A DNA stretch of 38,979 nt from Escherichia phage LM33_P1: the sequence record NC_031937.1, one strand, 5' to 3'. Below, piece after piece: positions 1,775 through 38,658 of the stretch (position 1 is its first letter; each line of letters starts with the position of its first letter). The position numbers and the translations under genes were made by a program. The notes under the pieces are model-generated. The model saw only the letters and a program-made list of their open reading frames with translations, was not told where the DNA came from and made no database searches.

Positions 1775-1820
1775 AGACTACAGGTCATCAATGCTGGTGG
1801 CCTGACTGATAGTCATTAAC
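1775..1820 (+). promoter_or_regulatory. RNase III-type processing hairpin plus box GGCCTGACTGATAGTCATTAAC
   Basis: Third copy of conserved early intergenic box. Confidence 0.5.
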
Positions 1821-1836
1821 AACTGAGAGGGAAGAT

Positions 1837-2064: not shown

Positions 2065-2137
2065 CCTAAATAAACAGGAGAGAACCAAATCATAGCTTGA
2101 CCATAACACTGACGTGATGGTACTGAGTGATAGACGA

Positions 2138-2166
2138 GAGGTCATCGACTGATAGGTGGCCTCAAA
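2138..2166 (+). promoter_or_regulatory. RNase III-type hairpin (GAGGTCA/TGGCCTC) with GACTGATAG loop
   Basis: Inverted repeat with G-U wobble, shares loop motif with the other early boxes. Confidence 0.4.
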
Positions 2167-2196
2167 GATTACCACTTACATTGATAGGAGTTAACT

Positions 2197-2301
2197 ATGA
2201 GCACTGCAATCATCTGGACTATCTCAGGCTTCGTAGCGTGGGGAATGTTTACTCTAGTCTGCAAACTACCGGTCCTTACTCAACTGTTATGGGGCTTATG
2301 A
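2197..2301 (+). CDS. Small hydrophobic early peptide (34 aa)
   Basis: ATG preceded by GATAGGAG; hydrophobic sequence MSTAIIWTISGFVAWGMFTLVCKLPVLTQLLWGL; below the ORF-track size cutoff. Confidence 0.35.
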   Translation: MSTAIIWTISGFVAWGMFTLVCKLPVLTQLLWGL

Positions 2302-2501
2302 CTATGAGTATCGCACTATTGATAGCCATAGGCTATGGACTTATCGCCTACGTGCTGGTGAGAGACATCAACAAAGCGCGTAAAGTCTACAAATTCAAAT
2401 ATGTACGTCTGGGTAGCTGGACTGTACGTCAACCTAACGGACGATTCATGCGTAACTTAGCGAACGTCTGGGATATAGCAACACTTGGGAGCAAACTGTA
2501 A
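2289..2501 (+). CDS. Small membrane protein (about 70 aa, one predicted TM helix)
   Basis: Internal ATG of track ORF 2127..2501; the upstream part of that ORF overlaps a hairpin site so the 2127 start is unlikely. Confidence 0.4.
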   Translation: MGLMTMSIALLIAIGYGLIAYVLVRDINKARKVYKFKYVRLGSWTVRQPNGRFMRNLANVWDIATLGSKL

Positions 2502-2827
2502 TGAACAAGTCATACGGGATTAATCTGGTACACTCTATGGACGCAGACATGCAAATGTTAAGCCTACTGGCTACCGGGTATCGTCACGGAACGTCAAGTC
2601 ACTCCGCACGTCAACAGCAGGAGCGGGACCGGGTACTGCAAGCAAGACTCCGGGCTGAGGGCCATAAGTCCGAACTAATGTGTCTGGTGTATGGTGGACG
2701 ACCAATCACTGACGATGGTAAACTTTTAGTCTCAGGCTGGAAGGCGATAGACCAACGGTCAACCATCAAGCACACGACTCATGGTGACTTCAGTCATCTC
2801 CACGCTAACCCGCTGATATGCAAGTAA
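2501..2827 (+). CDS. Hypothetical early protein (108 aa) at the position T7 gives to the 0.7 kinase
   Basis: ORF with ATG overlapping upstream stop (TAATG); no kinase motifs recognised. Confidence 0.55.
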   Translation: MNKSYGINLVHSMDADMQMLSLLATGYRHGTSSHSARQQQERDRVLQARLRAEGHKSELMCLVYGGRPITDDGKLLVSGWKAIDQRSTIKHTTHGDFSHLHANPLICK

Positions 2828-2832
2828 TTCTG

Positions 2833-2855
2833 ACTTAACTATCACTATAGGACTC
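2833..2855 (+). promoter_or_regulatory. Phage RNAP promoter variant (TTAACTATCACTATAGGAC) directly upstream of gene 1
   Basis: Matches the 11-member promoter family in this genome. Confidence 0.6.
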
Positions 2856-2924
2856 AAGGTCTAAGACTCCAAGTGAAAGACCAAAGAGACTTTAAGTGAA
2901 AGACTAATAACAAGGACTTTAAGT

Positions 2925-4892: not shown

Positions 4893-4926
4893 GGACATCG
4901 TGATGCCAGGGACATCGTGATGCCAG
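4893..4926 (+). repeat. Perfect 17-nt tandem direct repeat (GGACATCGTGATGCCAG x2) inside the RNAP gene
   Basis: Read directly; lies immediately 3' of the in-frame TGA (4890-4892). Confidence 0.9.
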
Positions 4927-5606
4927 CGATTGACTCAGGGTCTGGCGCTATGTTCACTGAACCAAGCCAAGCATCTCGCTTCATGGCTAAGATGATTTGG
5001 GAAGCTGTGAGTGTGACCGTAGTTGCTGCGGTTGACGCGATGAAATGGCTTCAGGGTGCTGCCAAGCTGCTTGCTGCTGAAGTGAAGGACAAGAAGACTG
5101 GAGAAATCCTGAAGCCTTGTCTTCCGGTACACTGGGTCACACCTGATGGTTTCCCTGTCTGGCAGGAATACCGCAAGAAGGACACCACTCGTCTGAACCT
5201 GATGTTCTTAGGGTCATTCAACCTTCAGCCTACCGTCAACAAAGGCACGAAGAAAGAGCTGGACAAGCACAAGCAGGAGTCAGGCATTAGCCCGAACTTC
5301 GTCCACTCACAAGATGGTAGCCACCTCCGCAAGACTGTAGTCCACACGCACCGCAAATATGGCGTGATGTCATTCGCAGTGATTCACGATAGCTTCGGGA
5401 CCATCCCGGCTGACGCTGAGTATCTGTTCCGTGGAGTCCGTGAGACGATGGTCGAGACCTACCGCGACAACGATGTGCTGCTTGACTTCTACGAGCAGTT
5501 TGAATACCAGCTTCACGAGAGCCAGAGAGACAAGTTGCCTGAGCTTCCGAAGAAAGGTAAACTGAATATCGAAGACATCTTGTCTTCAGACTTTGCATTC
5601 GCTTAA
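4917..5606 (+). CDS. 1: T7-like RNA polymerase, C-terminal 229 codons (same frame as N-terminal part)
   Basis: Similarity to T7 RNAP C-terminus through ...HDSFGTIPADA... to terminal FAFA; same frame as 2925..4892, separated by TGA plus 8 codons. Confidence 0.88.
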   Translation: MMPAIDSGSGAMFTEPSQASRFMAKMIWEAVSVTVVAAVDAMKWLQGAAKLLAAEVKDKKTGEILKPCLPVHWVTPDGFPVWQEYRKKDTTRLNLMFLGSFNLQPTVNKGTKKELDKHKQESGISPNFVHSQDGSHLRKTVVHTHRKYGVMSFAVIHDSFGTIPADAEYLFRGVRETMVETYRDNDVLLDFYEQFEYQLHESQRDKLPELPKKGKLNIEDILSSDFAFA

Positions 5607-5621
5607 CAACAGGAGAAGTAT

Positions 5622-5852
5622 ATGTCAATGAAACTTGTAGCACACAACAGGGTATTCAACGATGGGTCGGGACGTTGCCATGTAGAGCTGACTTATAAGG
5701 ATTTAATCATTCTCCGAGACAGATTACAGTCGGGTGTGACTGGGTGGATTCAACCTAACGAGTACAACCTTATAGCTTCGATTGATGAAGTTCTTAACGC
5801 GTGGATGGAAGACGAGCGCATTCAGTATCCGTCATTCCCTCTAATTAGATAA
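5622..5852 (+). CDS. Hypothetical protein (76 aa)
   Basis: ORF with RBS AGGAG immediately after gene 1; no T7 counterpart recognised. Confidence 0.55.
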   Translation: MSMKLVAHNRVFNDGSGRCHVELTYKDLIILRDRLQSGVTGWIQPNEYNLIASIDEVLNAWMEDERIQYPSFPLIR

Positions 5853-5862
5853 GGAGAGAGTT

Positions 5863-6078
5863 ATGAAATTTGCACACAAGCATACTGGCGTTAATGGTGG
5901 GACTCAAATCGTGACCGTAACAGAACACAACGGCAAGGGTCTGGTGAAGACCACGGTCATCCCTACCGAGATGTCCAAGCAGCTTAACATCCCGTTCAAG
6001 ACTCTTGTATATCTGGTCGAGTCCAGCCACGAGAAGTACCTGAAGGACGCAGTGTCCAAGCTGGAGCAGGCCAAATGA
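5863..6078 (+). CDS. Hypothetical protein (71 aa)
   Basis: ORF with strong RBS TAAGGAGAG. Confidence 0.6.
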   Translation: MKFAHKHTGVNGGTQIVTVTEHNGKGLVKTTVIPTEMSKQLNIPFKTLVYLVESSHEKYLKDAVSKLEQAK

Positions 6079-6153
6079 CAGACATACAGTTACTGGCCTT
6101 GTGGCTGGGAGCACTCGCAGTATTCACTTTAATCCAACGCAGAAGAGGTTAAC

Positions 6154-6176
6154 CCTAAACTATCACTATAGGATTA
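6154..6176 (+). promoter_or_regulatory. Phage RNAP promoter (CTAAACTATCACTATAGGATT)
   Basis: Consensus match; position equivalent to T7 phi1.1. Confidence 0.7.
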
Positions 6177-6215
6177 GACTCAAGGTCATGACTCAAAGTC
6201 GTGGCCTTCATGATT
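6177..6215 (+). promoter_or_regulatory. RNase III-type processing hairpin (AAGGTCA/TGGCCTT, G-U containing)
   Basis: Conserved box AGACTCAAGGTCAT...GTGGCCTTCATGATTA, also at 13110 and 35902. Confidence 0.5.
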
Positions 6216-6249
6216 AACCCTAAATAAACACTACTGGAGATTTAACCGT

Positions 6250-6429
6250 ATGTATCAGAACACTATCAACTTCGAGCGCATCCGTGAACGTCAGCAGACT
6301 GAAGGTTACATCCCTAAGGGCCGCAAGCTGAACAAGACTAAACGTGGAGGAGGTATCAAAGGTGCTTTCCGTAACGCTGAAGGTAAAGACTCTATGGTTA
6401 ACCAAGAGAAATACTTCGTAGGAGCATAA
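6250..6429 (+). CDS. 1.1: Gene 1.1-like small basic protein (59 aa)
   Basis: Similarity to T7 gp1.1 (..GRKLNKTKR..); position upstream of 1.2; below the ORF-track cutoff. Confidence 0.6.
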   Translation: MYQNTINFERIRERQQTEGYIPKGRKLNKTKRGGGIKGAFRNAEGKDSMVNQEKYFVGA

Positions 6430-6433
6430 CCAA

Positions 6434-6697
6434 ATGGGCAGACTTTATAGTGGCAACCTCAACGATTTCAAAGCAGCGTGTCACAGGCTTTATCAGTTAG
6501 ACTTCGCTGTCATATCTCAGGAGTTTCAAGACTATACGTCACGCCAAGAGTGTATGAAACTCAGGGTGGAGGACCGAGCTGGTAACATCTTCGCGCTTGA
6601 GACCTTCGCACACTACGATGAAGACGTGCTGTATAATACCGCAACCGACTACCTCAACGGTCTCGCTGACCATCTCGACACATGGAGCAAAGAATAA
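6434..6697 (+). CDS. 1.2: Gene 1.2 protein (host dGTPase inhibitor homolog)
   Basis: Strong similarity to T7 gp1.2 (MGRLYSGNL..FKAA....DEDVL). Confidence 0.85.
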   Translation: MGRLYSGNLNDFKAACHRLYQLDFAVISQEFQDYTSRQECMKLRVEDRAGNIFALETFAHYDEDVLYNTATDYLNGLADHLDTWSKE

Positions 6698-7785
6698 TGA
6701 CAACTATCAAAACTAACCCTCACCGCGCTGTAGATTACTCTGAGTCTGGAATTAAGAAGGCACTGGAAGCAGCCGGGTCTCTGGAAGCTGAAGTGAAGTA
6801 CGATGGTGTGCGCCTGAACCTCCTGGTCCTGCGTGAAGGTGAGACCTACTGGCTTAGCCGCGAGTCGAAACCTCTACCAGCCTTGGAGTGGATGAACTCT
6901 GAGTTAGGTAATGCGTGGACCCAAGCTGACTGGCGATGGTTCCTGCGTCAATCCGGCTACGAAGGTGTGGGCATGATGATTGATGGCGAGGTCATGGTCA
7001 AAGGTGTAGACTTCAACACCTCCTCAGGTCTCATCCGAACGAAGTGGCTCAAGCCTAACAACGAGGAGTTCGCTGAATACTATTCGCCGGCGACTGGTGG
7101 AAAGAAGCTCCCGTTCTGGGGATCCCGGTCACGACTTCAGGTTGTGGTCTACGGTGTCATCGACATGACAACCATTGCTGACCCGAAAGCCGAAGGTCCT
7201 ATCCATAGCGTCACACGCCTGAAGGCCGAAGCTATCGTCCCTCTCCTCCAGAAATACTTCCCGGAAATCGACTGGGTTCTGTCTGAGTCACACACGGTCT
7301 ATGACCTTGAGTCTCTCAACTCCCTGTACGAAGAGAAGCGTCTGGAAGGACACGAGGGTCTGGTAGTCAAGGACCCACTTGGTAAATACAAGCGCGGCAA
7401 GAAGTCAGGCATGTGGAAAATGAAGCCGGAGGACACCATTGATGGGACCGTGTGTGGACTCGTGTGGGGGACTCCTGGTAAGGCTAACGAAGGTAAGATC
7501 ATCGGCTTTGAGGTTCTACTGGAGGATGGCATGGTGGTCAACGCCTGCGGTCTGTCTGAAGAACAGAAGGACGGGTTTACGGCTAAGGTCAAGGAGGACA
7601 CGCTTGCTGCGGTTGGCATCTTTGCGCCGTACGGCATTGGTGGTAACGAACCTTGCTTCGATAACCCATACGAAGGCTGGCAGTGTGAAGTCCTCTTCAT
7701 GGAGAGGTTCCCTGATGGCTCCCTTCGTCACCCCAGCTTCAAGTGCTGGCGTGGAACCGAAGACAACCCAACGGTGAAGTCATGA
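6697..7785 (+). CDS. 1.3: ATP-dependent DNA ligase
   Basis: Similarity to T7 ligase including KYDGVR adenylation motif and C-terminal SLRHPSF..RGTEDNP; start taken at ATG overlapping the 1.2 stop (track ORF begins 6682). Confidence 0.9.
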   Translation: MTTIKTNPHRAVDYSESGIKKALEAAGSLEAEVKYDGVRLNLLVLREGETYWLSRESKPLPALEWMNSELGNAWTQADWRWFLRQSGYEGVGMMIDGEVMVKGVDFNTSSGLIRTKWLKPNNEEFAEYYSPATGGKKLPFWGSRSRLQVVVYGVIDMTTIADPKAEGPIHSVTRLKAEAIVPLLQKYFPEIDWVLSESHTVYDLESLNSLYEEKRLEGHEGLVVKDPLGKYKRGKKSGMWKMKPEDTIDGTVCGLVWGTPGKANEGKIIGFEVLLEDGMVVNACGLSEEQKDGFTAKVKEDTLAAVGIFAPYGIGGNEPCFDNPYEGWQCEVLFMERFPDGSLRHPSFKCWRGTEDNPTVKS

Positions 7786-7999: not shown

Positions 8000-8020
8000 C
8001 GTACGGGCCACCAGCTAGAC

Positions 8021-8043
8021 CCTAAGCTATCACTATAGGACAA
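8021..8043 (+). promoter_or_regulatory. Phage RNAP promoter (CCTAAGCTATCACTATAGGACAA)
   Basis: Consensus match. Confidence 0.7.
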
Positions 8044-8069
8044 CCCTAACCGACCAAAGGAGAAACCTT

Positions 8070-8324
8070 ATGTCTAAAAACTTAATGTTCAACCGATTTA
8101 CTCGAAGCTTCCACCTGTCGCATAGCCCATTCAGCTTCCATAAATCTAATCAACCATTACCCCGCTTTGGTAAGACAGTGGCTCTGTCTCCCACAGTTCA
8201 TGCGCTAGTCACCCGCAAGTCTATGCTGAAGGCTATGGATAAAGAACAAGTCGATGTACCTGTGGTCGTTACAAAATGGCCTCGCATTAAGCTGGCCCTT
8301 CTGGTAATTAAGGAAGTGTTTTGA
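8070..8324 (+). CDS. Gene 1.6-like protein
   Basis: C-terminal similarity to T7 gp1.6 (..RIKEVF) as recalled; RBS AAAGGAGAAA. Confidence 0.55.
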   Translation: MSKNLMFNRFTRSFHLSHSPFSFHKSNQPLPRFGKTVALSPTVHALVTRKSMLKAMDKEQVDVPVVVTKWPRIKLALLVIKEVF

Positions 8325-8662
8325 TGGCATATTGTGATAGCACCACATACTGTGAAGCATGTAATGGTGATGACCGCTTCCCACACGTTGGTAAACTTGT
8401 AGGTAACAAGCTGCAAGAAATTGATGGTGTACGCAAGCCATCCCACTATCAGGTCTTTGATGGCGTGGAATCCATTGAGATTATCGCACGGTCAATGACT
8501 GTGAGTGAGTTCCGTGGGTTCTGCATGGGTAACGTCCTGAAGTATCGACTCCGGGCTGGTAAGAAGTCAGAGCTGGCAACTATGGAGAAGGACCTGAACA
8601 AAGCAGCCTTCTATCAGGAGCTGTTCGACCTGCATAAAGGTAAGTGCTATGCTTCCGAGTGA
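8324..8662 (+). CDS. Gene 1.7-like protein (nucleotide kinase family, short form)
   Basis: C-terminal similarity to T7 gp1.7 (KPSHY..F...E.IE.IARSMTV..F.G.C.GN.LKYRLRAGKKSEL) as recalled; 113 aa versus about 196 in T7. Confidence 0.6.
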   Translation: MAYCDSTTYCEACNGDDRFPHVGKLVGNKLQEIDGVRKPSHYQVFDGVESIEIIARSMTVSEFRGFCMGNVLKYRLRAGKKSELATMEKDLNKAAFYQELFDLHKGKCYASE

Positions 8663-8672
8663 GTGGTGTGAA

Positions 8673-8744
8673 ATGATGTTCGAGAAGACAGGTAACACTG
8701 ACTACCTTGAATTGTATAACCAGTGGAAGGAGCGCGGTTTATGA
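8673..8744 (+). CDS. Possible mini-ORF (23 aa) at the gene 1.8 position
   Basis: ATG-initiated ORF overlapping the gp2 start; no strong RBS. Confidence 0.2.
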
Positions 8745-8899
8745 CTGAGGTTGAGAAGAAATACATCGTGGAGCTTGAGGGTCGCGTTCAGTCCTTCGAG
8801 GTTCCGTTGTACGCAAAGTCTCTTGAAGAGGCTACCCTGAAGTCCCAAGAGTATGAGGACGCTGGGTTTGTGGTCGGACGGATTCGCCCTGAGACCTAA
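8741..8899 (+). CDS. 2: Gp2-like inhibitor of host RNA polymerase (52 aa)
   Basis: Similarity to T7 Gp2 (..SFEVP.YA..L.EA......Y...GF.V.R.RP); below the ORF-track cutoff. Confidence 0.7.
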
Positions 8900-8917
8900 A
8901 CTATCACTGTAGGACAG
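8895..8917 (+). promoter_or_regulatory. Phage RNAP promoter variant (CTAAACTATCACTGTAGGACAG)
   Basis: Consensus match with TG at -3/-2. Confidence 0.6.
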
Positions 8918-8956
8918 ACGTCCAGTTAGTAACTTTAAATTAGGAGATTTACACCA

Positions 8957-9649
8957 ATGGCTAAAGAGCAACTGAAGACTTTCACCACTCCGGTAGCTGG
9001 TATCGTTGAGCCTTACGCATGGCTGAACAAAGCAGACACCAAGTTTAATGAACGTGGTGAGCATAAGGTTAACCTGACGTTCGACCTGAGCGACCCGAAG
9101 GTCCGTAAGATGATTGATGTCTTACAGAAGATTCACGACGATGCGTATGCGAAAGCACTCGCAGACCACGAGAAGAACCCACCTCAGGTTCAGCGTGGCA
9201 AGAAGCCTATTGAACCACGTGAAGGCGACATGCCGTGGATTGAGAATGGTGACGGTACTGTTACCCTTAAGTTTAAATGCTTTGCGTCTTACCTGAAAGA
9301 CGGCAAGTCCGAGCCTATCTTATTACGGTTCTACGACACCGATGCTAAACTCATCCGTGACGTCCCGAATATTAGCGCTGGCTCCAAACTGAAGGTCAAG
9401 TTTAAAGTCCTGCCGTTCAAGTGGAACGCTGCGACCGGTGCAAGCGTTAAGCTCCAGCTTGAGTCCTGCCTTCTTGTAGAACTGAAGGAGTGGAAAGGTG
9501 CTGGTGGTGATGGTGGCTGGGGTGATGATGAAGACCTTGGTACTGGCTACAAAGCGCCAACCGATGGTGACTTCGGGTCTGATGCCTTCGGTGACGATGG
9601 TTCCGAAGGTGGTGACGACTCCAGCTCTGGTGGCGATTACGACTTCTAA
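8957..9649 (+). CDS. 2.5: Single-stranded DNA-binding protein with acidic C-terminal tail ending in F
   Basis: Similarity to T7 gp2.5 (MAK.....EPYA., GDMP...NGDGT..FKFKC.AS, SKLKVK....P.KWN.A.GASVKLQLES..LVEL); D/E/G-rich tail ...GGDYDF. Confidence 0.9.
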   Translation: MAKEQLKTFTTPVAGIVEPYAWLNKADTKFNERGEHKVNLTFDLSDPKVRKMIDVLQKIHDDAYAKALADHEKNPPQVQRGKKPIEPREGDMPWIENGDGTVTLKFKCFASYLKDGKSEPILLRFYDTDAKLIRDVPNISAGSKLKVKFKVLPFKWNAATGASVKLQLESCLLVELKEWKGAGGDGGWGDDEDLGTGYKAPTDGDFGSDAFGDDGSEGGDDSSSGGDYDF

Positions 9650-10101
9650 TGGCCCAATGGTCTGCAAAACGGGGGCACTCTGTGGGTGCCTACCGCTCTG
9701 GACTTGAAGCCAAGAACCAGCAGTGGCTGGAACAGAACGGCGTCAAAGCGGAGTACGAAAGCCATTATATCAACTATGTGATTCCGGCTTCCGACCACAA
9801 GTACACACCAGATTTTATCCTTCCTAACGGTATCATCGTGGAGACCAAAGGTATCTTCGATAGTGATGACCGTAAGAAGCACCTTCTGGTACGAGAACAG
9901 CACCCAGAGTTAGACATCCGGTTCGTGTTCTCAAGTTCACGCTCCAAGTTATACAAAGGGTCTCCAACCACGTATGGCGCATGGTGCGAAAAGAACGGCT
10001 ATAAGTATGCCGATAAATTCATCCCGGTTGAGTGGCTTCGAGAGGCGACTGTACGTCTGCCTTCAGGTATACTCATCCCCAAGAAGAAAGGAGTTAAGTG
10101 A
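9649..10101 (+). CDS. 3: Endonuclease I (Holliday junction resolvase)
   Basis: Similarity to T7 gp3 (YTPDF.LPNGI.VETKG...SDDRKKHLL.REQHPELDIR.VFSSSR.KLYKGSPT.YG). Confidence 0.9.
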   Translation: MAQWSAKRGHSVGAYRSGLEAKNQQWLEQNGVKAEYESHYINYVIPASDHKYTPDFILPNGIIVETKGIFDSDDRKKHLLVREQHPELDIRFVFSSSRSKLYKGSPTTYGAWCEKNGYKYADKFIPVEWLREATVRLPSGILIPKKKGVK

Positions 10102-10592: not shown

Positions 10593-11040
10593 GGTACAGT
10601 TCAATCCACGGTCCCGGACCGACGCTATCTTCGTACACTGTTCGGCTACCAAGCCAGAGATGGACATCGGGGTAGAGACCATCCGTATGTGGCACAAGCA
10701 GCAAGGCTGGCTGGACGTAGGCTACCACTTTATCATCAAGCGCGATGGCACTGTGGAAGAGGGACGCCCGGTCAATGTCGTAGGGTCACACGTTAAGGAC
10801 TGGAACTCACGGTCTGTAGGCGTCTGCCTTGTAGGTGGAATTGACGCTAAGGGCAAGTTTGAAGCTAACTTCACTCCGGCCCAGATGAACTCCCTGCGCA
10901 ACAAGCTGGCTGACCTGAAGGACTTGTATCCTCAGGCAGAAATCAAAGCACATCATGACGTAGCACCAAAGGCGTGTCCAAGTTTCGACTTGCAACGCTG
11001 GCTGTCTACCAATGAACTGGTCACTTCCGACCGAGGCTAA
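10582..11040 (+). CDS. 3.5: N-acetylmuramoyl-L-alanine amidase (T7 lysozyme, RNAP-binding)
   Basis: Strong similarity to T7 gp3.5 (DAIFVHCSATKP, WLDVGYHFIIKRDGTVE, CPSFDL..W....ELVTSDRG). Confidence 0.92.
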   Translation: MVSKVQFNPRSRTDAIFVHCSATKPEMDIGVETIRMWHKQQGWLDVGYHFIIKRDGTVEEGRPVNVVGSHVKDWNSRSVGVCLVGGIDAKGKFEANFTPAQMNSLRNKLADLKDLYPQAEIKAHHDVAPKACPSFDLQRWLSTNELVTSDRG

Positions 11041-11058
11041 ACTATCACCGTAGGGATG
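11036..11058 (+). promoter_or_regulatory. Phage RNAP promoter variant (CTAAACTATCACCGTAGGGATG), followed by 5' stem-loop 11053-11077
   Basis: Consensus match except CG at -4/-3; transcript would start with 10-bp hairpin GGGATGAGAC/GTCTTGTCCC. Confidence 0.55.
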
Positions 11059-11103
11059 AGACCACGAGTCTTGTCCCTTTGTTCGCATTTGAGATTAAGA
11101 AAT

Positions 11104-17112: not shown

Positions 17113-17163
17113 GTCTAACCGATAGTCATATCCTATCAATCCAATAGTCATCCATAGGTGAAA

Positions 17164-17186
17164 CACTAAACTATCACTATAGGGAC
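17164..17186 (+). promoter_or_regulatory. Phage RNAP promoter (CTAAACTATCACTATAGGGACT)
   Basis: Consensus match; position equivalent to T7 phi6.5. Confidence 0.75.
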
Positions 17187-17248
17187 TTTAGGACCTAAGA
17201 TATGACTATAAGATAGACTTTAGTCTTAACTTAAAGAGGAGATTCAAG

Positions 17249-18439: not shown

Positions 18440-20008
18440 ATGGCTGAACGTGAAGGGTTCGCTGCTGAAGGCGCTAAGTCAGTTTATGATAGATTGAAGA
18501 ACGGACGACAGCCTTACGAGACCCGCGCACAGAACTGTGCTGCTGTCACTATCCCGTCACTGTTTCCTAAGGAATCAGACAACTCGTCTACTGAATATAC
18601 CACTCCGTGGCAAGCTGTAGGTGCTCGCTGCTTGAACAACTTGGCTGCAAAGCTGATGTTGGCGTTATTCCCTCAGTCACCGTGGATGCGACTGACAGTC
18701 TCCGAATATGAGGCCAAGACCTTGAGTCAGGACTCAGAGGCTGCTGCTCGTGTTGACGAAGGGCTTGCTATGGTCGAGCGTGTGTTGATGGCCTACATGG
18801 AGACTAACAGTTTCCGTGTGCCATTGTTCGAAGCTCTGAAGCAGCTTATCGTCTCCGGTAACTGTCTGCTTTACATTCCAGAGCCTGAACAGGGTACTTA
18901 CAGTCCGATGCGGATGTACCGCTTAGTGTCTTACGTTGTTCAACGTGATGCGTTCGGTAACATCTTGCAGATTGTGACTCTCGACAAGGTAGCTTTCAGT
19001 GCTCTACCGGAAGACGTGAAGTCTCAACTCAATGCAGACGACTATGAGCCTGACACCGAGCTTGAAGTGTATACGCACATCTACCGTCAAGACGACGAGT
19101 ATCTACGCTACGAGGAAGTGGAAGGGATTGAGGTAGCAGGGACCGATGGTTCCTACCCGCTGACTGCATGTCCGTACATCCCGGTACGAATGGTTCGACT
19201 GGATGGTGAAGACTACGGTCGTTCTTACTGCGAGGAGTATCTGGGCGACCTTAACTCGCTGGAGACGATTACAGAAGCTATCACCAAAATGGCTAAGGTA
19301 GCCTCCAAGGTGGTGGGACTCGTTAACCCGAACGGTATCACGCAACCTCGACGTCTGAACAAGGCGGCTACAGGTGAGTTCGTGGCTGGTCGCGTTGAGG
19401 ACATCAACTTCCTGCAACTGACGAAAGGTCAGGACTTTACGATTGCCAAGTCGGTGGCTGACGCTATAGAGCAACGTTTAGGCTGGGCCTTCCTTCTTAA
19501 TAGTGCTGTTCAGCGTAATGCCGAGCGGGTCACTGCTGAAGAGATTCGTTATGTTGCTGGCGAACTGGAGGCGACCTTAGGTGGCGTGTACTCAGTACAA
19601 TCACAAGAGCTTCAGTTGCCTATCGTCCGTGTGCTGATGAACCAGCTTCAGTCTGCTGGCATGATTCCTGACCTTCCGAAAGAAGCGGTAGAGCCTACGG
19701 TCTCCACTGGTCTTGAAGCGTTAGGCCGTGGTCAAGACTTAGAGAAGCTGACTCAGGCAGTCAACATGATGACCGGGCTACAGCCTCTGGCTCAGGACCC
19801 AGACATTAACTTGCCGACCCTGAAGCTGCGACTGCTGAATGCCTTAGGCATTGACACCGCTGGTCTACTCCTTACGCAGGACGAGAAGATTCAGCGCATG
19901 GCTGAACAGTCGTCTCAACAGGCAGTAGTCCAAGGTGCTGGTGCTGCTGGTGCCAACATGGGCGCTGCTGTAGGTCAGGGAGCTGGTGAGGACATGGCTC
20001 AAGCCTAA
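18440..20008 (+). CDS. 8: Head-to-tail connector (portal) protein
   Basis: Collinear similarity to T7 gp8 (GAKSVY.RLKN.R.PYETRAQNCA..TIPSLFPK.SDN.ST.Y.TPWQAVGAR.LNNLA.KLMLALFP). Confidence 0.93.
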   Translation: MAEREGFAAEGAKSVYDRLKNGRQPYETRAQNCAAVTIPSLFPKESDNSSTEYTTPWQAVGARCLNNLAAKLMLALFPQSPWMRLTVSEYEAKTLSQDSEAAARVDEGLAMVERVLMAYMETNSFRVPLFEALKQLIVSGNCLLYIPEPEQGTYSPMRMYRLVSYVVQRDAFGNILQIVTLDKVAFSALPEDVKSQLNADDYEPDTELEVYTHIYRQDDEYLRYEEVEGIEVAGTDGSYPLTACPYIPVRMVRLDGEDYGRSYCEEYLGDLNSLETITEAITKMAKVASKVVGLVNPNGITQPRRLNKAATGEFVAGRVEDINFLQLTKGQDFTIAKSVADAIEQRLGWAFLLNSAVQRNAERVTAEEIRYVAGELEATLGGVYSVQSQELQLPIVRVLMNQLQSAGMIPDLPKEAVEPTVSTGLEALGRGQDLEKLTQAVNMMTGLQPLAQDPDINLPTLKLRLLNALGIDTAGLLLTQDEKIQRMAEQSSQQAVVQGAGAAGANMGAAVGQGAGEDMAQA

Positions 20009-20026
20009 ACTATCACTATAGGAACA
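20004..20026 (+). promoter_or_regulatory. Phage RNAP promoter (CTAAACTATCACTATAGGAACA)
   Basis: Consensus match; upstream of scaffold gene. Confidence 0.75.
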
Positions 20027-20102
20027 ACACCGTAAGTCCAACTCTAGGTGAGTCAACTAGACGAGGCAGGTGTTACCTATTAACTACCAAAGGAGAGACT
20101 TA

Positions 20103-20988: not shown

Positions 20989-21011
20989 ACTAAACTATCA
21001 CTATAGGGAGA
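20989..21011 (+). promoter_or_regulatory. Phage RNAP promoter, exact class III-like (CTAAACTATCACTATAGGGAGACC) upstream of capsid gene
   Basis: Best consensus match; followed by 5' stem-loop GGGAGACC...GGTTTCCC and AT-rich leader, as for T7 phi10. Confidence 0.8.
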
Positions 21012-21114
21012 CCAAGAGACAGACTCAAGGTTTCCCCTATTACTTAAGTCCATACGGATTGGGCGTACAGTAAGTAATAAACTTTATTTTTCAATTGAAT
21101 AGGAGAATTATCAT

Positions 21115-25771: not shown

Positions 25772-25794
25772 CCTTAACTATCACTATAGGGACT
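25772..25794 (+). promoter_or_regulatory. Phage RNAP promoter (CCTTAACTATCACTATAGGGACT)
   Basis: Consensus match; position equivalent to T7 phi13. Confidence 0.75.
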
Positions 25795-25823
25795 ATAGGC
25801 CCTTAAGGTTATAAGGAGACTTT

Positions 25824-32100: not shown

Positions 32101-33052
32101 ACGTCAGGGCTTCCTGTCTGACATCGTGGAGCATAGCCTGACTGGTAGTAAGCGTAAGTTCGATGACCGCTGGCTGAAGACCGCTGGTATCTCTGACGAG
32201 CAGTGGAAGGGCATTAAGTCCCTAATCCGTGAGTCAGTGACTCGTGGTCCAGACGGGAAGTACACCATCAAGGATAAGAAGGCGTTCAGTCAGGACCCAA
32301 GGGCTATGGACCTCTGGCGTATGGGTGACACCATCGCTGACGAGACGTTACTCCGGCCTCATAAGCTGTCAAACATGGACGCCAAGGCTTATGGTCCTCT
32401 CGCTAAGACTGTCCTTCAGTTTAAGAACTTCGTCATCAAGTCTATCAATGGGAGAACCATGCGAACCTTCTATAACGCCACGAAGAACAACAGAGCGATT
32501 GACGCTGCACTGTCGACCGTGATGTCTATGGGTCTGGCTGGTATCTACTACATGGCTCAGGCGCATGTCAAGGCTTATGCTATGCAGGATGGTCGAGACC
32601 GTGACTACCTTAAGCAAGCTCTGGACCCAACGATGATTGGCTATGCGGCCCTGTCCCGTAGTTCACATCTTGGTGGCCCACTTGGGGTAGCTAACATTCT
32701 GGGTGGAATCGCTGGGTATGAGGACACTAAGATGCTCCGCTCGTCAATCCTTCCGCGCTCACCTACCGAGAAGACGGAGAAGCCAATCGCCTTTGGTGCT
32801 GCTTCCAGTGGTCCGGTAATGAATGTGGTCGGCAACTTCCTTGAGCAGGTCCCGGCTTTCGGCTATGCTGCTAACGTTGGTGCTACGGCTTACAACTTGG
32901 CGGGATACCTCAAGGCTGATACCCGTGTCAACGAGCGAGACTACATGACCGGGATGTATAACACGTTCCGTGAACTTGTACCGAATGACCCGATTACCCA
33001 GAAGTTGCTGCTTGGAACGTTTGAGGAGCAGGGCATCCACATCAAGGACTAA
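29165..33052 (+). CDS. 16: Internal virion protein D (ejection/core protein) with divergent N-terminal domain
   Basis: Collinear similarity to T7 gp16 over most of its length (DLVRSPTGMQSGASGK, ENPA.FG, YGISH.DQF..SS..EENI.GLVG.ENNSFLEARNLFDSD, RPHK.S, ALSRSS.LG.PL); start at ATG after AAGGAG (track ORF begins 29147). Confidence 0.9.
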   Translation: MATRGIRNNNPGNIRVSKDQWEGMTGDDGAFVTFDSPESGVRALGKNLLSYGRQGYDSIEKIINRWAPPNENDTKAYIDSVVAATGIPATQSLDLSDPDTLSSLAQAISFHETGSRYDPEVYQKGVARALNGISPKTPPVSANVFDALTEGLKAKPKVDLGENLPTAAGLNIEGQAPEAPNESFGEMFYKSTGETMQEREDRSTWFGFGSATEAEVKNSMVGVAIRAGQTEDSLDVIGDVFNPTRWNNHKWSREELDQIRNAGVLPQYYGVITGGSPQNLTELINLALENQKLDQEKAKAGIGAQLAAGVIGAGVDPLTYVPIAGQVGKGGKLVNKMFTVAAQSGALAGVSEMARTSVAGGDAHVAEAILGGALFGGGMTAIADGLGRALGRNTNEFAGPATRLEARETARNVDGQDLSRLPIQEGEQTFSHQGVKFADVPNEPGSVRLEDGSILIGENPLNPQTRKVFDEVIEPERAAAGVNLGGLTEIGLKLLRSENPEIRGVAADLVRSPTGMQSGASGKIGTTASDVFERLRAVDHRFYNDIDDAVTEALKDPYFQTAFWRDSGAFRQDIYQRVSMAIEDGSGNLKAELTPGELKVYDLLKNQFDAKREMMENPAMFGRPDAQSIFPGSRFKGTYVPHVYSNQMKELYIKELGSPEALQEAIKKSWLTSYASRPEVKKRVDEALLEADPTLTPEGLAAAVDKYANDKAYGISHTEQFERSSVMEENINGLVGLENNSFLEARNLFDSDMSIVLPNGQTFSVNNLREWDMDKIVPAYNRRVNGDIAIMAGTGKTTKDMKDLVETLMNKAGDDGKLKGEVSTLRDTLKILTGRARRDGADDAAFATVMRTMTDLSFFAKNAYMGVQNLTEIGGMLARGNVRAMLHGVPIFRDLAFRNKKVGASEIKDLHNVIFGKELDDSIRPSKQDVIDRLRSYSDLGRGTATALGTAKYYTGELAVRSPFTKVLNGTTNYLLDAGRQGFLSDIVEHSLTGSKRKFDDRWLKTAGISDEQWKGIKSLIRESVTRGPDGKYTIKDKKAFSQDPRAMDLWRMGDTIADETLLRPHKLSNMDAKAYGPLAKTVLQFKNFVIKSINGRTMRTFYNATKNNRAIDAALSTVMSMGLAGIYYMAQAHVKAYAMQDGRDRDYLKQALDPTMIGYAALSRSSHLGGPLGVANILGGIAGYEDTKMLRSSILPRSPTEKTEKPIAFGAASSGPVMNVVGNFLEQVPAFGYAANVGATAYNLAGYLKADTRVNERDYMTGMYNTFRELVPNDPITQKLLLGTFEEQGIHIKD

Positions 33053-33070
33053 ACTATCACTATAGGAAAC
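33048..33070 (+). promoter_or_regulatory. Phage RNAP promoter (CTAAACTATCACTATAGGAAAC)
   Basis: Consensus match; position equivalent to T7 phi17. Confidence 0.75.
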
Positions 33071-33116
33071 TGGAGGCGCTACCATAGGTCTCCGTTTAAA
33101 TCACAAAGGAGGCATA

Positions 33117-35297
33117 ATGTCCACGATTACACAATTCCCTTCAGGAAACACTCAGTACAGGATAGAGTTCGACTACCTAGCCAGAACGTTTGTTGTTGTT
33201 ACGCTGGTGAATAGCTCTAACCCTACCCTGAACCGTGTACTGGAAGTTGGTCGAGATTACCGATTCCTTAATCCAACGATGATTGAGATGTTGGCTGACC
33301 AATCAGGTTTCGACATCGTTCGTATTCACCGTCAGACTGGAACTGACTTAGTGGTAGACTTCAGGAATGGCTCAGTGTTGACAGCTAGTGACCTGACCAA
33401 TTCAGAGCTTCAGGCTATCCATATTGCAGAAGAAGGTCGAGACCAAACGGTTGACTTAGCGAAGGAATATGCCGATGCTGCTGGTAGCTCTGCTGGCAAC
33501 GCTAAGGATAGCGAGGACGAATCACGCCGAATCGCTGCGAGTATCAAGGCAGCTGGTAAAATTGGCTATATTACCCGTCGCTCCTTCGAGAAAGGCTTCA
33601 ACGTTACAACATGGAACGAGGTCCTGCTATGGGAAGAGGATGGTGATTATTACCGCTGGGATGGTACGCTTCCAAAGAACGTTCCCGCTGGTTCAACTCC
33701 TGAATCATCTGGTGGTATTGGGCTGAGTGCGTGGGTTAGTGTTGGTGATGCGTCACTTAGAGCAAACCTGGCTGATAGTGATGGCGCTAAATACATAGGC
33801 AGTGGAGAAAGGACATTACTTGAGCACAACAATGATGTTTTGCACTCAAAAGACTTTCCAACACTGCAGGCAGCTATAGATGCATCTTTGCAAAAAAATG
33901 ATCTACTGGTGTCTCCTGGCAATTATACTGAAAAAGTTACTATTGGAAACGCGCAGTTAAAAGGTGTTGGCGGGGCCACGGTACTAAAAACTCCGGCAGA
34001 CTTTACAAACACTGTTCAGGTTAATTTAGCTACACCTCATTGGCAATTCCGCCATAGTGGTGGTTTTGCTATAGATGGTTCCGGGACAACCGGGGCCGTA
34101 GGTATTAGTTTTGACCCGTCAGACCAATATTCCGGACGTCATAATTTTAGTGATGTATACATCCACAACATCAACAAGGCCATTCAGAAGCCTTCCGGGA
34201 ACATCGGCAATACTTGGAGAAATATTGGGATATCTACGTGTGATTGGGGGTATTACGCGATTAGTGGCTCAGAGATGCATTGCGGGGCCGATACCCTCTA
34301 CAATATCCACTTCGATGGCATCTCCACCTATGCAGTCTATCTAGACGGCACTGTCGATAATGGCGGGGGGGGCGCATGGTGGCTTAAAGACTCCATTATT
34401 GAGGCTTCCGGAGGTGGCGGGATATACTTAAAAAGTAAATCGGGCGACTGTCCTACATCTCCATGCGGGGTATCCAATATATGGATGGAAGCGATCGCAA
34501 CATCACCGGCTGTTCAGGTAGACGGCGTGGCGCAAAAACCGCGAGTTCTCAAGTTGGTAGACACAGCGATATTCTTTGCTGAGTATTCTTATCTCAACAA
34601 CATCGAGCTATCCAACTCCAACTTAGTAACTTATGGTTGCCGTTTTGACAACGCTGATGGCAATCAGGATATTGTCGTGGATGCACAAAGTACCATTGTA
34701 GCCCATGACGTGTATTTAAACGGCAGTTCTGGAAAGGACGTTATTGTGGAGTCCGTAGCATCGCAATCTGCAACGATAGCTGCCACAAACTTATCTCTGA
34801 GGGGCAACTTAACAAGAGGGAGAGTATTTAATACGCCGACAGGGAATAAATTAATGGCTATCACATTTGACTCAGGTAGCCATAATTTTTCTGGCAGCGG
34901 CACCGTTAACGGTTCGACTGTATCTGACGGACTTCACGCCGCTACATGTACCGAATTTTCATTCCCCGGAGCCGGTTTATATGAAATGGTAGCGACAAGA
35001 ACAACCATTACATCCGGTAGATGGTACGTGTGGGGAGTTAACTCACGCCTACAATCTGGCTCGGCGGATATTAGTATAACGTCAGGTATTACCATGGGTA
35101 GTGTTTACACAAAGCCGGGGGAGTGGATTAGCACTTTCGGTGTAGGAAAGGCATCTACCACTGGCACTGTAGCGCTATACGTTTCCACAGGAGGAGGTTC
35201 GGGAGCTACGGTCAGATTCAGTGACTTTTTCATCGCTGAGTTTACGACGCAAGCTCAGGCTTTAGCTTTCGCCAATTCAAGGATGTCGTTATCATAA
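33117..35297 (+). CDS. 17: Tail fibre/tailspike: T7 gp17-like N-terminal domain fused to beta-helix-type C-terminal receptor-binding/depolymerase-like module
   Basis: N-terminal roughly 150-220 aa resemble T7 gp17 (F.YLAR.FVVVTL......L....DYRF, H.AEE.RD); C-terminal portion is Gly/Ser/Thr-rich with repetitive beta-strand pattern and distinct AT-richer codon usage. Confidence 0.88.
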   Translation: MSTITQFPSGNTQYRIEFDYLARTFVVVTLVNSSNPTLNRVLEVGRDYRFLNPTMIEMLADQSGFDIVRIHRQTGTDLVVDFRNGSVLTASDLTNSELQAIHIAEEGRDQTVDLAKEYADAAGSSAGNAKDSEDESRRIAASIKAAGKIGYITRRSFEKGFNVTTWNEVLLWEEDGDYYRWDGTLPKNVPAGSTPESSGGIGLSAWVSVGDASLRANLADSDGAKYIGSGERTLLEHNNDVLHSKDFPTLQAAIDASLQKNDLLVSPGNYTEKVTIGNAQLKGVGGATVLKTPADFTNTVQVNLATPHWQFRHSGGFAIDGSGTTGAVGISFDPSDQYSGRHNFSDVYIHNINKAIQKPSGNIGNTWRNIGISTCDWGYYAISGSEMHCGADTLYNIHFDGISTYAVYLDGTVDNGGGGAWWLKDSIIEASGGGGIYLKSKSGDCPTSPCGVSNIWMEAIATSPAVQVDGVAQKPRVLKLVDTAIFFAEYSYLNNIELSNSNLVTYGCRFDNADGNQDIVVDAQSTIVAHDVYLNGSSGKDVIVESVASQSATIAATNLSLRGNLTRGRVFNTPTGNKLMAITFDSGSHNFSGSGTVNGSTVSDGLHAATCTEFSFPGAGLYEMVATRTTITSGRWYVWGVNSRLQSGSADISITSGITMGSVYTKPGEWISTFGVGKASTTGTVALYVSTGGGSGATVRFSDFFIAEFTTQAQALAFANSRMSLS

Positions 35298-35441
35298 AAA
35301 CAACCTCAGCCGAATCGGGTTATTTATCATCAGAACGGTATTGAATCATCGAAGGTTGTGGAGGTAGAGGCTAACTACACGTTGACCAACGTATGATAAC
35401 AACTTTGGGTCACGGACGACCCGCTTTAAACTGGAGGTTTT

Positions 35442-35636
35442 ATGATTGAGTTAGACTTCAAGAATGAGGTCCTCAAAGCCTCGCCTATCGTCGGGACCGC
35501 TGCGGCTGATGGTGCCAGTCGGTTCTTCTTTGGGCTAACGCTCAACGAATGGTTCTACGTCGCTGCTATCGCGTACACCGTGGTGCAGATTGGCGTCCTA
35601 ATTTACAAGACGATTAAGAGCGGAGGTAAGACATGA
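35442..35636 (+). CDS. 17.5: Holin (class II, T7 gp17.5-like)
   Basis: Similarity to T7 holin (..LDF.NE..KA.PIVGT..AD...R.FFGL.LNEWFYVAAIAYTVVQIG). Confidence 0.8.
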   Translation: MIELDFKNEVLKASPIVGTAAADGASRFFFGLTLNEWFYVAAIAYTVVQIGVLIYKTIKSGGKT

Positions 35637-35896
35637 CGCAGATGGACTTAGAGAAGTTCCTGTTAATGCTGGACACAGAACGTGCTAGACTAATGCTGCA
35701 AGACCTGCGGGATGACACTAAGCGTTCACCTCAGCTCTACAACGCCATTGAGAAACTGCTTGCTCGACACAACTTTGTGTTAAGCAAGGTGTCTGTGGAC
35801 GAGAAGACGCTGGCGGATATGGAGGCCTTGAACGAAGAGTACGATAAGGTGCTTTCAGCTACTGAGGATAATGACACCGGGTATGGTGTTCAATAA
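35633..35896 (+). CDS. 18: Terminase small subunit
   Basis: Similarity to T7 gp18 (..FL.MLDT..A..ML.DL.D...RSPQLYNAI.KLL.RH.F). Confidence 0.8.
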   Translation: MTQMDLEKFLLMLDTERARLMLQDLRDDTKRSPQLYNAIEKLLARHNFVLSKVSVDEKTLADMEALNEEYDKVLSATEDNDTGYGVQ

Positions 35897-36442: not shown

Positions 36443-38202
36443 GTAAAGACTTAGTGGCGCGTCAGGCGCTAATGACTGCACGTATGAAGTCAGACTTCGT
36501 GTTCTTCCTGTTCGTCCTGTGGAAAGCTCTGTCGCTCCCAGTCCCGACTCGCTGTCAGATTGACATGGCGAAGAAACTATCGGCTGGGGACAACAGGCGC
36601 TTCATCCTACAGGCGTTCCGTGGTATAGGGAAGTCCTTCATTACGTGTGCCTTCGTTGTCTGGAAGCTATGGAACAACCCAGACTTGAAGTTCATGATTG
36701 TGTCGGCCTCAAAGGAGCGAGCCGATGCTAACTCCATCTTCATCAAGCGAATCATCGACCTCATGCCTCAGCTTCAGGAACTCAAACCTAAGCAGGGACA
36801 GCGAGATGCGGTTATTAGCTTCGACGTGGGACCTGCCAAGCCAGACCACTCACCTTCGGTTAAGTCCGTTGGTATCACTGGTCAGTTGACTGGTAGTCGT
36901 GCTGACATCCTGATTGCCGATGACGTGGAGGTTCCGAACAACTCAGCGACTCAGGCTGCACGAGACCGTCTATCAGAGCTTGTGAAAGAGTTCGACGCTA
37001 TCCTGAAGCCGGGAGGTACGATCATCTATCTGGGTACTCCTCAGAACGAGATGACCCTGTACCGTGAGCTGGAAGGTCGTGGGTACACCACTACTATCTG
37101 GCCCGCTCGTTATCCACGCGACAGGAAGGACTGGCAGTCTTACGGCGACCGTCTGGCTCCTATGCTTCAGGAAGAGCTGGAAGAGGACCCTGAGTCCTTC
37201 TACTGGCGTCCGACTGATGAAGTACGCTTCGATGATACGGACCTGAAGGAACGTGAGCTGTCCTACGGTAAAGCTGGCTTCGCTCTACAGTTCATGCTTA
37301 ACCCGAACCTGAGTGATGCCGAGAAGTACCCTCTTAAGCTCCGTGACCTTATCGTAGCCGACTTGGACCCAGCGTCCAGCCCAATGGTCTACCAATGGTT
37401 GCCGAACCCTCAGAACAAGCGTGAGGACGTTCCTAACGTTGGACTCATGGGTGACTCGTACCACACGTATCAGACTGTAGGTTCTGCCTTCAGCTCATAC
37501 ACCCAGAAGATTCTGGTCATTGACCCTAGTGGTCGTGGTAAGGATGAAACTGGATATGCGGTACTGTACCAGCTCAACGGCTACATCTTCGCTATGGAAG
37601 TTGGTGGCATGCGTGGTGGTTATGAAGACTCTACGCTGGAAGCCTTGGCTAAGATTGGTCGTAAGTGGAGGGTCAACGAATACGTCATTGAGGGTAACTT
37701 CGGTGATGGTATGTACCTTGAGTTATTCAAGCCTGTAGCTGCCCGTATCCATCCTGCTGCTGTAACTGAAGTGAAGAGTAAGGGTCAGAAAGAACTCCGC
37801 ATCTGTGACGTTCTGGAGCCTATCATGGGGTCTCACAGACTTATCGTTAACGCTGCCGCTATCGTCCAAGACTACCAGTCAGCCTCTGATAAGGATGGTG
37901 TTCGTAACCCTATCTACTCTCTCTTCTACCAGATGACTCGTATCTCTCGTGAACGTGGAGCATTGGCACATGATGACCGACTTGATGCGCTGGCTATCGG
38001 TGTACAGTTCTTCGTTGAGTCGATGGCTAAGGATGCCAACAAAGGCGAACGTGAAGTCACTGAGGAGTGGCTGGAGGAACAGATGGAGAACCCACGGAAA
38101 GGCTTCGAGTCCATCCACACTGAGTTCTGGGACAATGGGGTCCGGGTAACTCACGATACGGACGACGAGCTTGGACTAGGGTCATACGTTACGTTCCACT
38201 AG
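36439..38202 (+). CDS. 19: Terminase large subunit
   Basis: Extensive similarity to T7 gp19 ([83 protein letters not shown]); apparent TTG start 5 nt after AAGGAGGTGA. Confidence 0.93.
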
Positions 38203-38212
38203 CTGAATGAAT

Positions 38213-38260
38213 AACTATAGGTGAAAGCTGCATTAATAAGCAGCTAGTAACCTATAGTTA
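38213..38260. repeat. Nested palindrome (outer 10-bp AACTATAGGT/ACCTATAGTT, inner 6-bp AGCTGC/GCAGCT) after terminase gene
   Basis: Perfect inverted repeats read directly; arms contain promoter-core-like ACTATAGG. Confidence 0.7.
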
Positions 38261-38296
38261 CTACCAGTCTAACATACTGTTTTACAAGGAGTTTGG

Positions 38297-38319
38297 ACTT
38301 AACTATCACTATAGGGAAG
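38297..38319 (+). promoter_or_regulatory. Phage RNAP promoter (GACTTAACTATCACTATAGGGAAG), right-end promoter analogous to T7 phiOR
   Basis: Consensus match. Confidence 0.7.
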
Positions 38320-38499
38320 ACCCCCGGTTACTTATAGTATTACTATAGTGAATATACATATGCAGACTTTATGCAAGACCTTAGGAGGCAGACTCCGAGT
38401 TCTTACCTAAGGCTTGCACCGATGGAAGGAGGGTGATATTAATCATAATCCCTCCAATACAGATAGTCACCGACCATAGATACAGGAGGTATGTAGCAT

Positions 38500-38658
38500 A
38501 TGGCAAAGACCAAAGCTGTACTTAAAGCTCTGGCGACCAATCGAGCTACATACAGGTTTCTTACTGCTGTTCTACTTGCTGCTGGCGTTACTGCTGGAAG
38601 TCAGTGGGTCGGGTGGGTCGAGACTCTCGTATGTTCTCTGGTCTCTCAGTGTAATTAA
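38500..38658 (+). CDS. Small hydrophobic protein (52 aa) in the gene 19.5 position
   Basis: ATG 9 nt after AGGAGGT; below the ORF-track cutoff. Confidence 0.4.
   Translation: MAKTKAVLKALATNRATYRFLTAVLLAAGVTAGSQWVGWVETLVCSLVSQCN

Follow-up and report, generated by a model that had tools for sequence, protein, structure and literature searches.

The question raised by the tail fibre locus of Escherichia phage LM33_P1, a Kayfunavirus, is how much of its gene 17 belongs to the T7-type fibre that its position suggests and where the remainder came from. The window analyzed here (NC_031937.1) is a stretch of 38,979 nucleotides (nt) and represents the complete genome of the phage. From the sequence alone, the original prediction had described the gene product as a T7-like N-terminal anchor fused to a compositionally distinct C-terminal module of the β-helix type. 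In this work, gene 17 was found to be a genuine mosaic. It is quite likely that its product consists of a T7-type anchor and an exchanged β-helix module, amino acids (aa) 222-726, which binds the O25b O-antigen and probably cleaves it hydrolytically. The finding is an ordinary one, as mosaics of this kind are well documented and the phage has been published (Dufour et al., 2016; Green et al., 2021; Pas et al., 2023). LM33_P1 has been published as a therapeutic candidate against Escherichia coli sequence type 131 (ST131)-O25b:H4 (Dufour et al., 2016, J Antimicrob Chemother 71:3072).

The mosaic structure was evident from sharp breakpoints of homology. In blastn against the siphovirus VB_EcoS-Golestan, genome positions 33780-35299 aligned with 88.2% identity, and in blastn against the K1F-like Kayfunavirus vB_EcoP_F (phage F), positions 32900-33752 aligned at 96.1%, followed by positions 35351-35700 at 90.3%. 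In three-way alignments, the 5' switch fell within the stretch encoding ...SLRANLADS/DGAKYIG..., and the transition at the 3' side was at most about 50 nt past the stop codon. Golestan has no clear DNA identity with LM33_P1 upstream of about 33774, and the 5' junction falls in the ...LRxxLAxxDGAKxIG... region; position 33780, from which the distinct module had been predicted to begin, was therefore correct within a few bases. Furthermore, 182 records of the phage collection matched gene 17 by megablast, although the match was full-length in only 10 of them. Thirteen siphovirus records matched gene positions 677-2174 only, while the Kayfunavirus matches, among the matches listed, stopped at gene positions 636-647. 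This is the pattern of a genus-conserved anchor with a differing distal module. The K1F-type gp17 of phage F illustrates it well, as it shares the locus between gene 16 and the holin gene and an anchor with 96-97% nt identity to position ~636, but its C-terminal part is a K1 capsule endosialidase that is annotated as a β-propeller. In its architecture, gene 17 corresponds to what Pas et al. (2023; PMC10408124) describe for Kayfuna-, Kaguna- and Lederbergviruses, namely an anchor that is conserved within the genus, combined with a receptor-binding domain (RBD) that is exchanged horizontally. O25 and O25b are not among the serogroup subtypes listed in the abstract of that paper, and the LM33_P1 module would add one to them.

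The same module occurs behind several other anchors. When it was searched separately in a large protein collection, 64 clusters were obtained in which it is fused to differing N-termini. The architectures comprise the form with PF03906 and PF18668 (726 aa), a form with PF18668 alone (661 aa, 86-92% identity to the module), a form with the P22 Head_binding domain PF09008 (644 aa, 82-83% identity), the Kuravirus ES17 fibre (1021 aa, 64% identity) and further proteins of 772-891 aa. The tailspikes of the Kagunaviruses Golestan, phiEc3/phiEc4, 22664BS2 and fEg-Eco06 share the entire module, from aa 222 through to the end of the gene, with 87-89% identity in nt and 90-92% in aa; however, they carry a 156-aa anchor of a divergent PF18668 type without the T7 tail domain, and their virion is that of a siphovirus. 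In the tail fibre protein of ES17 (ES17-TFP), it is the C-terminal 505 aa that are related to the LM33_P1 module, whereas the long N-terminal part is unrelated. By tblastn in the phage collection, the Kuraviruses ES17, myPSH1131 and myPSH2311 were 64% identical and other siphoviruses 45%. That the fibres of LM33_P1, Golestan, myPSH and ES17 are related had been recognised before (Green et al., 2021; PMC7885116). In E. coli, a P22-like prophage (Logan contig of SRR14303836, gene 8001-9935) was also found to carry a module with 82% identity, preceded by a P22 head-binding domain. The same RBD is therefore present in unrelated phage genera (Kagunavirus, Kuravirus, the P22-like prophage and other siphoviruses), and, judged by sequence, it is joined to at least four types of N-terminal anchor, those of Kayfunavirus, Kagunavirus, Kuravirus and the P22-like E. 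coli prophage.

Two further records were noticed in these searches. The Kayfunavirus vB_EcoP_IMEP24 (MZ648215.1, 33800-35314) carries, at the same locus and behind an anchor with 97.7% nt identity, a module of the same family with 39% identity, whose serogroup specificity presumably differs within the shared fold family. The record 'Mycolicibacterium phage J1' (MZ417522.1, UNVERIFIED, 25 kb, filed under Microviridae and with a Mycolicibacterium as host) contains a tail fibre (4480-7230) that is 71% identical to the module and has a Kuravirus-like gene order; its sequence is almost certainly a fragment of a coliphage, either mislabelled or present as a contaminant.

In addition to its boundaries, the module is set apart by its codon usage. 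Lysine is encoded by AAA in 11 of 17 cases in the module and in 140 of 611 cases in the other genes, leucine by TTA in 12 of 30 compared with 70 of 740, and asparagine by AAT in 15 of 31 compared with 83 of 407, so the frequent AAA, TTA and AAT codons pointed out from the sequence are indeed enriched. The AT-rich run CAAAAAAATG cited on that occasion was located at 33891. When codons were permuted within amino acids, the difference between module and genome was reached in 0 of 500 permutations; the anchor part compared with the genome gave p = 0.056 and the anchor compared with the module p = 0.025. The codon-usage log-odds of the module was -0.130 (z = -5.9), and no reference window of 505 codons was as low, whereas the anchor part was in range (0.055, z = -1.2). 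In no other part of the genome is synonymous codon choice as atypical as in the module. On the other hand, the visible rise in AT content that had been claimed for the module was borne out only weakly. The GC content falls from 0.486 at 33117-33779 to 0.466 at 33780-35297 (genome 0.502), and the 1518-nt module lies within the lowest 3% of genome windows, but the GC content at third codon positions (GC3) is nearly equal in the anchor part (0.443) and the module (~0.435-0.436), and the first 300 nt of gene 17 are just as AT-rich as the module. The module value of 0.436 is below every 505-codon window of the other genes, and GC3 of the whole gene 17 (0.438) is the lowest among 27 long open reading frames (ORFs), the others having 0.48-0.64. 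As GC3 in the anchor half is almost equally low, the junction is not marked by low GC3 alone, and low bulk GC was rejected as a junction marker on the same grounds. In phage F, the K1 endosialidase module (1282-3840 of the compared stretch) has a GC3 of 0.379, which is below that of the LM33_P1 anchor. Since both values are low, the whole locus of the receptor-binding protein (RBP) in Kayfunaviruses seems to be compositionally apart from the backbone. The horizontal acquisition of the module, as originally proposed, is thus borne out jointly by the breakpoints, the occurrence on four anchor types and the foreign codon usage.

The T7-type part of the protein is shorter than had been thought. 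The N-terminal PF03906 domain scores well above the curated cut-off of 25.2 bits, T7 gp17 (PDB 7boz) matches aa 6-116 (E = 3e-16), and the gene sits between that of the large internal virion protein gp16 and the holin/terminase genes, which is the position of T7 gp17; the equivalent locus of phage F is syntenic by annotation. Both the N-terminal domain and the gene position are therefore those of a T7 gp17-type fibre. The resemblance to T7 gp17 that had been expected over the first ~150-220 residues holds for aa ~6-116; beyond these a neck follows and then, at aa 151-211, PF18668, a domain that many tailspikes have in common. The 18-chain PDB entry 9vvr, a 'tail spike protein', is ~97% identical across aa 1-225. 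In the full-length AlphaFold (AF2) monomer model, with a mean predicted local distance difference test (pLDDT) score of 84, a β-rich domain (aa 4-89) and a small β domain (aa 152-208; pLDDT 84-91 for the PF18668 domain) are followed by a flexible linker (aa 211-240) and a long all-β body. The long helix at aa 97-148 would probably form a trimeric coiled-coil neck. The PF18668 domain matches the N-terminal domains of tailspike proteins (TSP) 1, 3 and 4 of phage CBA120 in the PDB; the CBA120 TSP1-4 and G7C tailspikes, however, are parts of branched multi-spike systems on myoviruses or podoviruses, whereas LM33_P1 has a single RBP gene, with gene 16 on one side and the holin gene on the other. 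When homologues were searched with only the anchor, 18 mostly truncated proteins were obtained, and the megablast of the phage collection was used for module diversity instead. The coiled-coil shaft and small tip of a T7-like distal part were not found in aa 222-726, which are modelled as a β-helix plus a β-sandwich. According to the models, the gene 17 product is T7-type in its anchor only and is not a T7-type fibre.

The fold of the module was predicted with high confidence. The model of aa 218-726, based on 46 homologues, had a pLDDT of 91.2 and a predicted template modelling score (pTM) of 0.87, and its central domain is a parallel β-helix. The top Foldseek ranks were CBA120 TSP4, the Klebsiella K2-2 tailspike, Kp32gp38 and the Sf6 tailspike. 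Five of the 46 homologues, all distant ones, also matched the Pfam family Beta_helix PF13229 (best E = 1.7e-5). Because of the model, the Foldseek ranks and these homologues, the β-helix-type module anticipated in the original prediction is favoured over a T7-like fibre tip. The last ~158 residues gave a local Foldseek match over 158 columns to the CBM22 domains 4xup/4xuo (target template modelling (TM) score 0.57-0.60), and the C-terminal β-sandwich may serve in trimerisation or sugar binding. The module is also rich in Gly, Ser, Thr and Asn, as had been noticed: these residues make up 38% compared with 24% in the proteome and 30% in the highest other gene, and charged residues account for 14.5% compared with 25%. 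It is not repetitive in sequence as had been stated, since neither internal BLAST repeats nor tandem repeats of the DNA were found in it, and its repetition is structural only. The endoglycosidase tailspikes of the Lederbergvirus type (P22, Sf6, HK620) likewise have a β-helix followed by a C-terminal β domain. The Sf6 tailspike was the top PDB profile match (E = 4e-23) and had the best Foldseek TM score (0.43-0.46). They differ in that the identity in the helix is ~12-13% with a profile alignment limited to the first coils, the LM33_P1 anchor is T7-type and the active-site residues are not transferable.

LM33_P1 is said to be strictly specific for O25b and to interact with its host in a manner dependent on lipopolysaccharide. 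The isolation hosts of other carriers of the module point in the same direction. The Kayfunavirus 22664BS1 and the Kagunavirus 22664BS2 were isolated on one O25b-positive strain, DSM22664, and the carriers 101136BS1 and 101118UKE1 on other O25b-positive strains (Loose et al., PMC8614997); the 22664BS1 gene is 99.8% identical to gene 17 and the 22664BS2 module 87% identical at the nt level. ES17 targets ST131 (PMC7885116). On the correlative evidence of these hosts, we consider the O25b O-antigen of E. coli ST131 to be the most likely receptor, and an O-antigen to be more likely than a capsule. Of the two polysaccharides originally proposed as receptor, capsule or O-antigen, the latter is thus favoured. 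The O25b repeat is ->4)[beta-Glc-(1->6)][alpha-Rha-(1->3)]alpha-Glc-(1->3)-alpha-Rha2Ac-(1->3)-beta-GlcNAc-(1->, a neutral unit of glucose (Glc), rhamnose (Rha), acetylated rhamnose (Rha2Ac) and N-acetylglucosamine (GlcNAc) that contains no uronic acid (PMC8260533). Lyase tailspikes, e.g., K5 lyase and LKA1gp49, act by β-elimination on substrates with uronic acid, which O25b, if it is the substrate, does not offer. If the module is an enzyme, it would therefore more likely be a hydrolase (endoglycosidase) than a lyase.

We hypothesize that the anchor, i.e., the T7 gp17-type domain, the helical neck and PF18668 (aa 1-221), fixes six trimers to the tail, and that the module was gained by recombination just past the anchor and ~50 nt past the stop codon. 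The source would be a pool of tailspike modules circulating in unrelated E. coli phages, namely Kagunavirus siphoviruses, Kuravirus podoviruses and P22-like prophages. The module would bind the O25b chains of ST131 along the β-helix, and these chains would probably be cleaved hydrolytically by acidic residues of the helix (candidates D425, E458 and D511). Such cleavage would bring the short tail to the outer membrane.

Several observations speak against parts of this proposal. No match in the module was found by the Pfam search, and the PDB sequence search with the module returned no related solved structure, its matches being confined to the anchor. The module profile matched only the P22/Sf6 head-binding domains in the PDB, which were brought in by fused homologues. 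The catalytic residues of Sf6 (E366/D399) were tried as a guide to those of LM33_P1 and rejected, as hhalign aligned the head-binding domain and first coils only. No biochemical evidence of cleavage by the module was found in the searchable literature. In a glycan array experiment, the 64%-identical ES17 protein attached to heparan sulfate, and the ligand may thus be something other than O-antigen. The host field of LNA5 (MZ311861.1, UNVERIFIED), whose gene 17 is 99.2% identical, gives the rough K-12 strain MG1655; unless this entry is unreliable, it conflicts with a strict dependence on O-antigen. As only monomers were modelled, the trimer state is indirect; multi-chain PDB entries are 9vvr with 18 chains and 9lna with 3. 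The anchor part, too, has a low GC3, which only 0.8% of reference windows match. Finally, the module had no blastn match in 5,426 complete E. coli genomes, so an origin from prophages rests on a few draft or read-assembled contigs.

An alternative is an adhesin, i.e., a module that binds O-antigen or another glycan and is not enzymatic, and we regard this explanation as unlikely. D425, E458 and D511 are the same in all homologues with identities down to 40%, D392, E429, E489 and D522 show at least 90% conservation, and conservation peaks in a block in the mid-helix. Invariant carboxylates together with such a block are the pattern expected of an active site and argue against mere binding. Because of their invariance, D425, E458 and D511 are the candidate catalytic carboxylates. 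Moreover, a short-tailed podovirus generally must cut long O-antigen, as P22, Sf6 and HK620 do.

It is very unlikely that the module is a capsule (K-antigen) depolymerase and not an O-antigen tailspike. The capsule types of ST131 are heterogeneous, and the depolymerase reading loses ground because what the isolation hosts have in common is the O25b antigen. LM33_P1 is also described by its O25b specificity, and the fusions to the P22 head-binding domain belong to the class of tailspikes that classically targets O-antigen.

Similarly improbable is an esterase like the CE8 pectin methylesterases on a β-helix, which would deacetylate the Rha2Ac of O25b without cutting the chain. The acetylated sugar is indeed present in the repeat (PMC8260533), PDB 8tne gave a weak profile match (E = 0.31), Foldseek matched the pectin methylesterase 2ntb (E = 4e-4), and a 'putative pectinesterase' domain common to ES17 and LM33_P1 is reported at E = 7e-3 in the ES17 paper (PMC7885116). 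However, the pectinesterase signals are all weak and reflect the general fold, and far better scores are obtained with tailspikes that are glycosidases or lyases. In the known deacetylases among tailspikes, the domains used are of the SGNH type. The notion that there was no transfer and that the compositional shift only follows from the amino acid make-up of a β-helix domain has a negligible chance: GC1 does fall from 0.56 to 0.47 and GC2 rises, as richness in Gly, Ser, Thr and Asn predicts, and GC3 is near constant, but it is refuted by the within-amino-acid permutations, the codon score and the sharp breakpoints with 88% nt identity to siphovirus genes, which require exchange.

The possible source of the module was approached by comparing it with its neighbours in other genomes. 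In Golestan, the module has a GC3 of 0.437 compared with 0.54-0.60 in the neighbouring genes and 0.545 in the N-terminal part of its own spike, which makes it foreign in that genome as well. On the other hand, its GC3 of 0.363 in the P22-like prophage fits the neighbours (0.34-0.43). As this was the only one of the contexts found in which the module fits, it suggests that temperate P22-like phages may be the reservoir. The prophage contains gp7, gp20, gp16, an antirepressor, the tailspike and an integrase; the tailspike adjoins the integrase and lies near the yfdC/mlaA/fadL region, and the chromosomal flank is 100% identical to E. coli SK1144, SA186, 4/1-1 and others. A more far-reaching version, in which the module additionally binds heparan-sulfate-type glycans of the host for mucosal positioning and spread from a P22-like reservoir to three types of lytic virion converging on ST131, appears quite unlikely as a whole.

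The module would determine which E. coli strains LM33_P1 attacks. Its cassette boundaries (33753-33780 and 35300-35350), together with its occurrence on four anchors, are useful for engineering of the host range by module swap. Practical uses would be a recombinant O25b-specific binder or depolymerase and the prediction of phage host range from sequence. No solved structure or enzymology of the module was found in the searchable literature. Scientifically, it is a further clear example of an established rule and raises no new question. The positions of all features are given in Table 1.

Table 1. Features of gene 17 and repeats of the LM33_P1 genome (positions in the window).
Feature	Position	Strand	Basis or remark
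Gene 17, tail fibre/tailspike, 726 aa + stop	33117..35297	+	ORF list; full-length match to PHROG 27367 'tail fiber protein'
T7 gp17-type N-terminal tail-attachment domain, aa 10-115	33144..33461	+	Pfam PF03906, E = 3.4e-16, 59.7 bits
Long α-helix, aa 97-148	33405..33560	+	Full-length AF2 model, pLDDT ~40-46 as monomer
Tail_spike_N domain, aa 151-211, end of genus-conserved anchor	33567..33749	+	Pfam PF18668, E = 1.4e-19
5' recombination junction, codons ...SLRANLADS/DGAKYIG...	33753..33780	+	Phage F identity stops at 33752; Golestan begins at ~33774-33780
Exchanged receptor-binding module, aa 222-726	33780..35297	+	88% nt identity to Kagunavirus tailspikes; codon z = -5.9
Predicted right-handed parallel β-helix, ~aa 241-575, with short N-terminal cap helix (LQAAIDA)	33837..34841	+	
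Predicted C-terminal β-sandwich, ~aa 577-726	34845..35294	+	AF2 strands E577-709, pLDDT >90
3' junction, ~50 nt past stop codon	35300..35350	+	Common to neither Golestan (ends 35299) nor phage F (resumes 35351)
Presumed phage RNA-polymerase promoter copy (CTAAACTATCACTATAGGA)	33049..33067	+	Direct-repeat families D1/D2
Repeats CTAAACTATCACTATAGG(G/A)A	6147-6173, 8014-8040, 8888-8914, 11037-11067, 17158-17213, 19997-20035, 20990-21020, 25773-25803, 33041-33079, 2833-2851, 38297-38315		

Around gene 17, the promoter copy overlaps the end of gene 16, and gene 17 starts 50 nt downstream of it. Copies of the D1/D2 repeats stand ahead of several genes, and about a dozen copies of CTAAACTATCACTATAGG(G/A)A stand ahead of gene blocks, one of them upstream of gene 17; from the T7-group consensus these repeats are presumably phage RNA-polymerase promoters. 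There was no convincing terminator hairpin 3' of gene 17.

The genome sequence is a circular permutation of OZ035813.1 with an offset of 3,376 nt, and no terminal direct repeat is present between the two ends of the 38,979-nt sequence. Gene 17 is 100% identical to its LM33P1 counterpart in OZ035813.1, and the two records differ in 12 bases only, all of them at 4891-4909 and far from gene 17. In this region, an in-frame TGA divides the T7-type RNA polymerase gene into 655 + 228 aa (ORFs 2925-4892 and 4920-5606). The 19-nt patch 4891-4909 is a near-tandem copy of the following 17 nt (GGACATCGTGATGCCAG), and OZ035813.1 has TCGCAGACCAAGTTTACGA at the same position, where the polymerase frame stays open. 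The 'two separate enzymes' in LT594300 are commented on in PMC13298934; from the comparison of the records, the split RNA polymerase is most likely an assembly or record artefact and not a truly divided enzyme. The early region, which is low in GC, has CCTGACTGATAGTCA(C/T)TAAC three times, at 747-776, 1064-1093 and 1792-1821, and the GC content has a trough of 0.39 at ~38200-38500.

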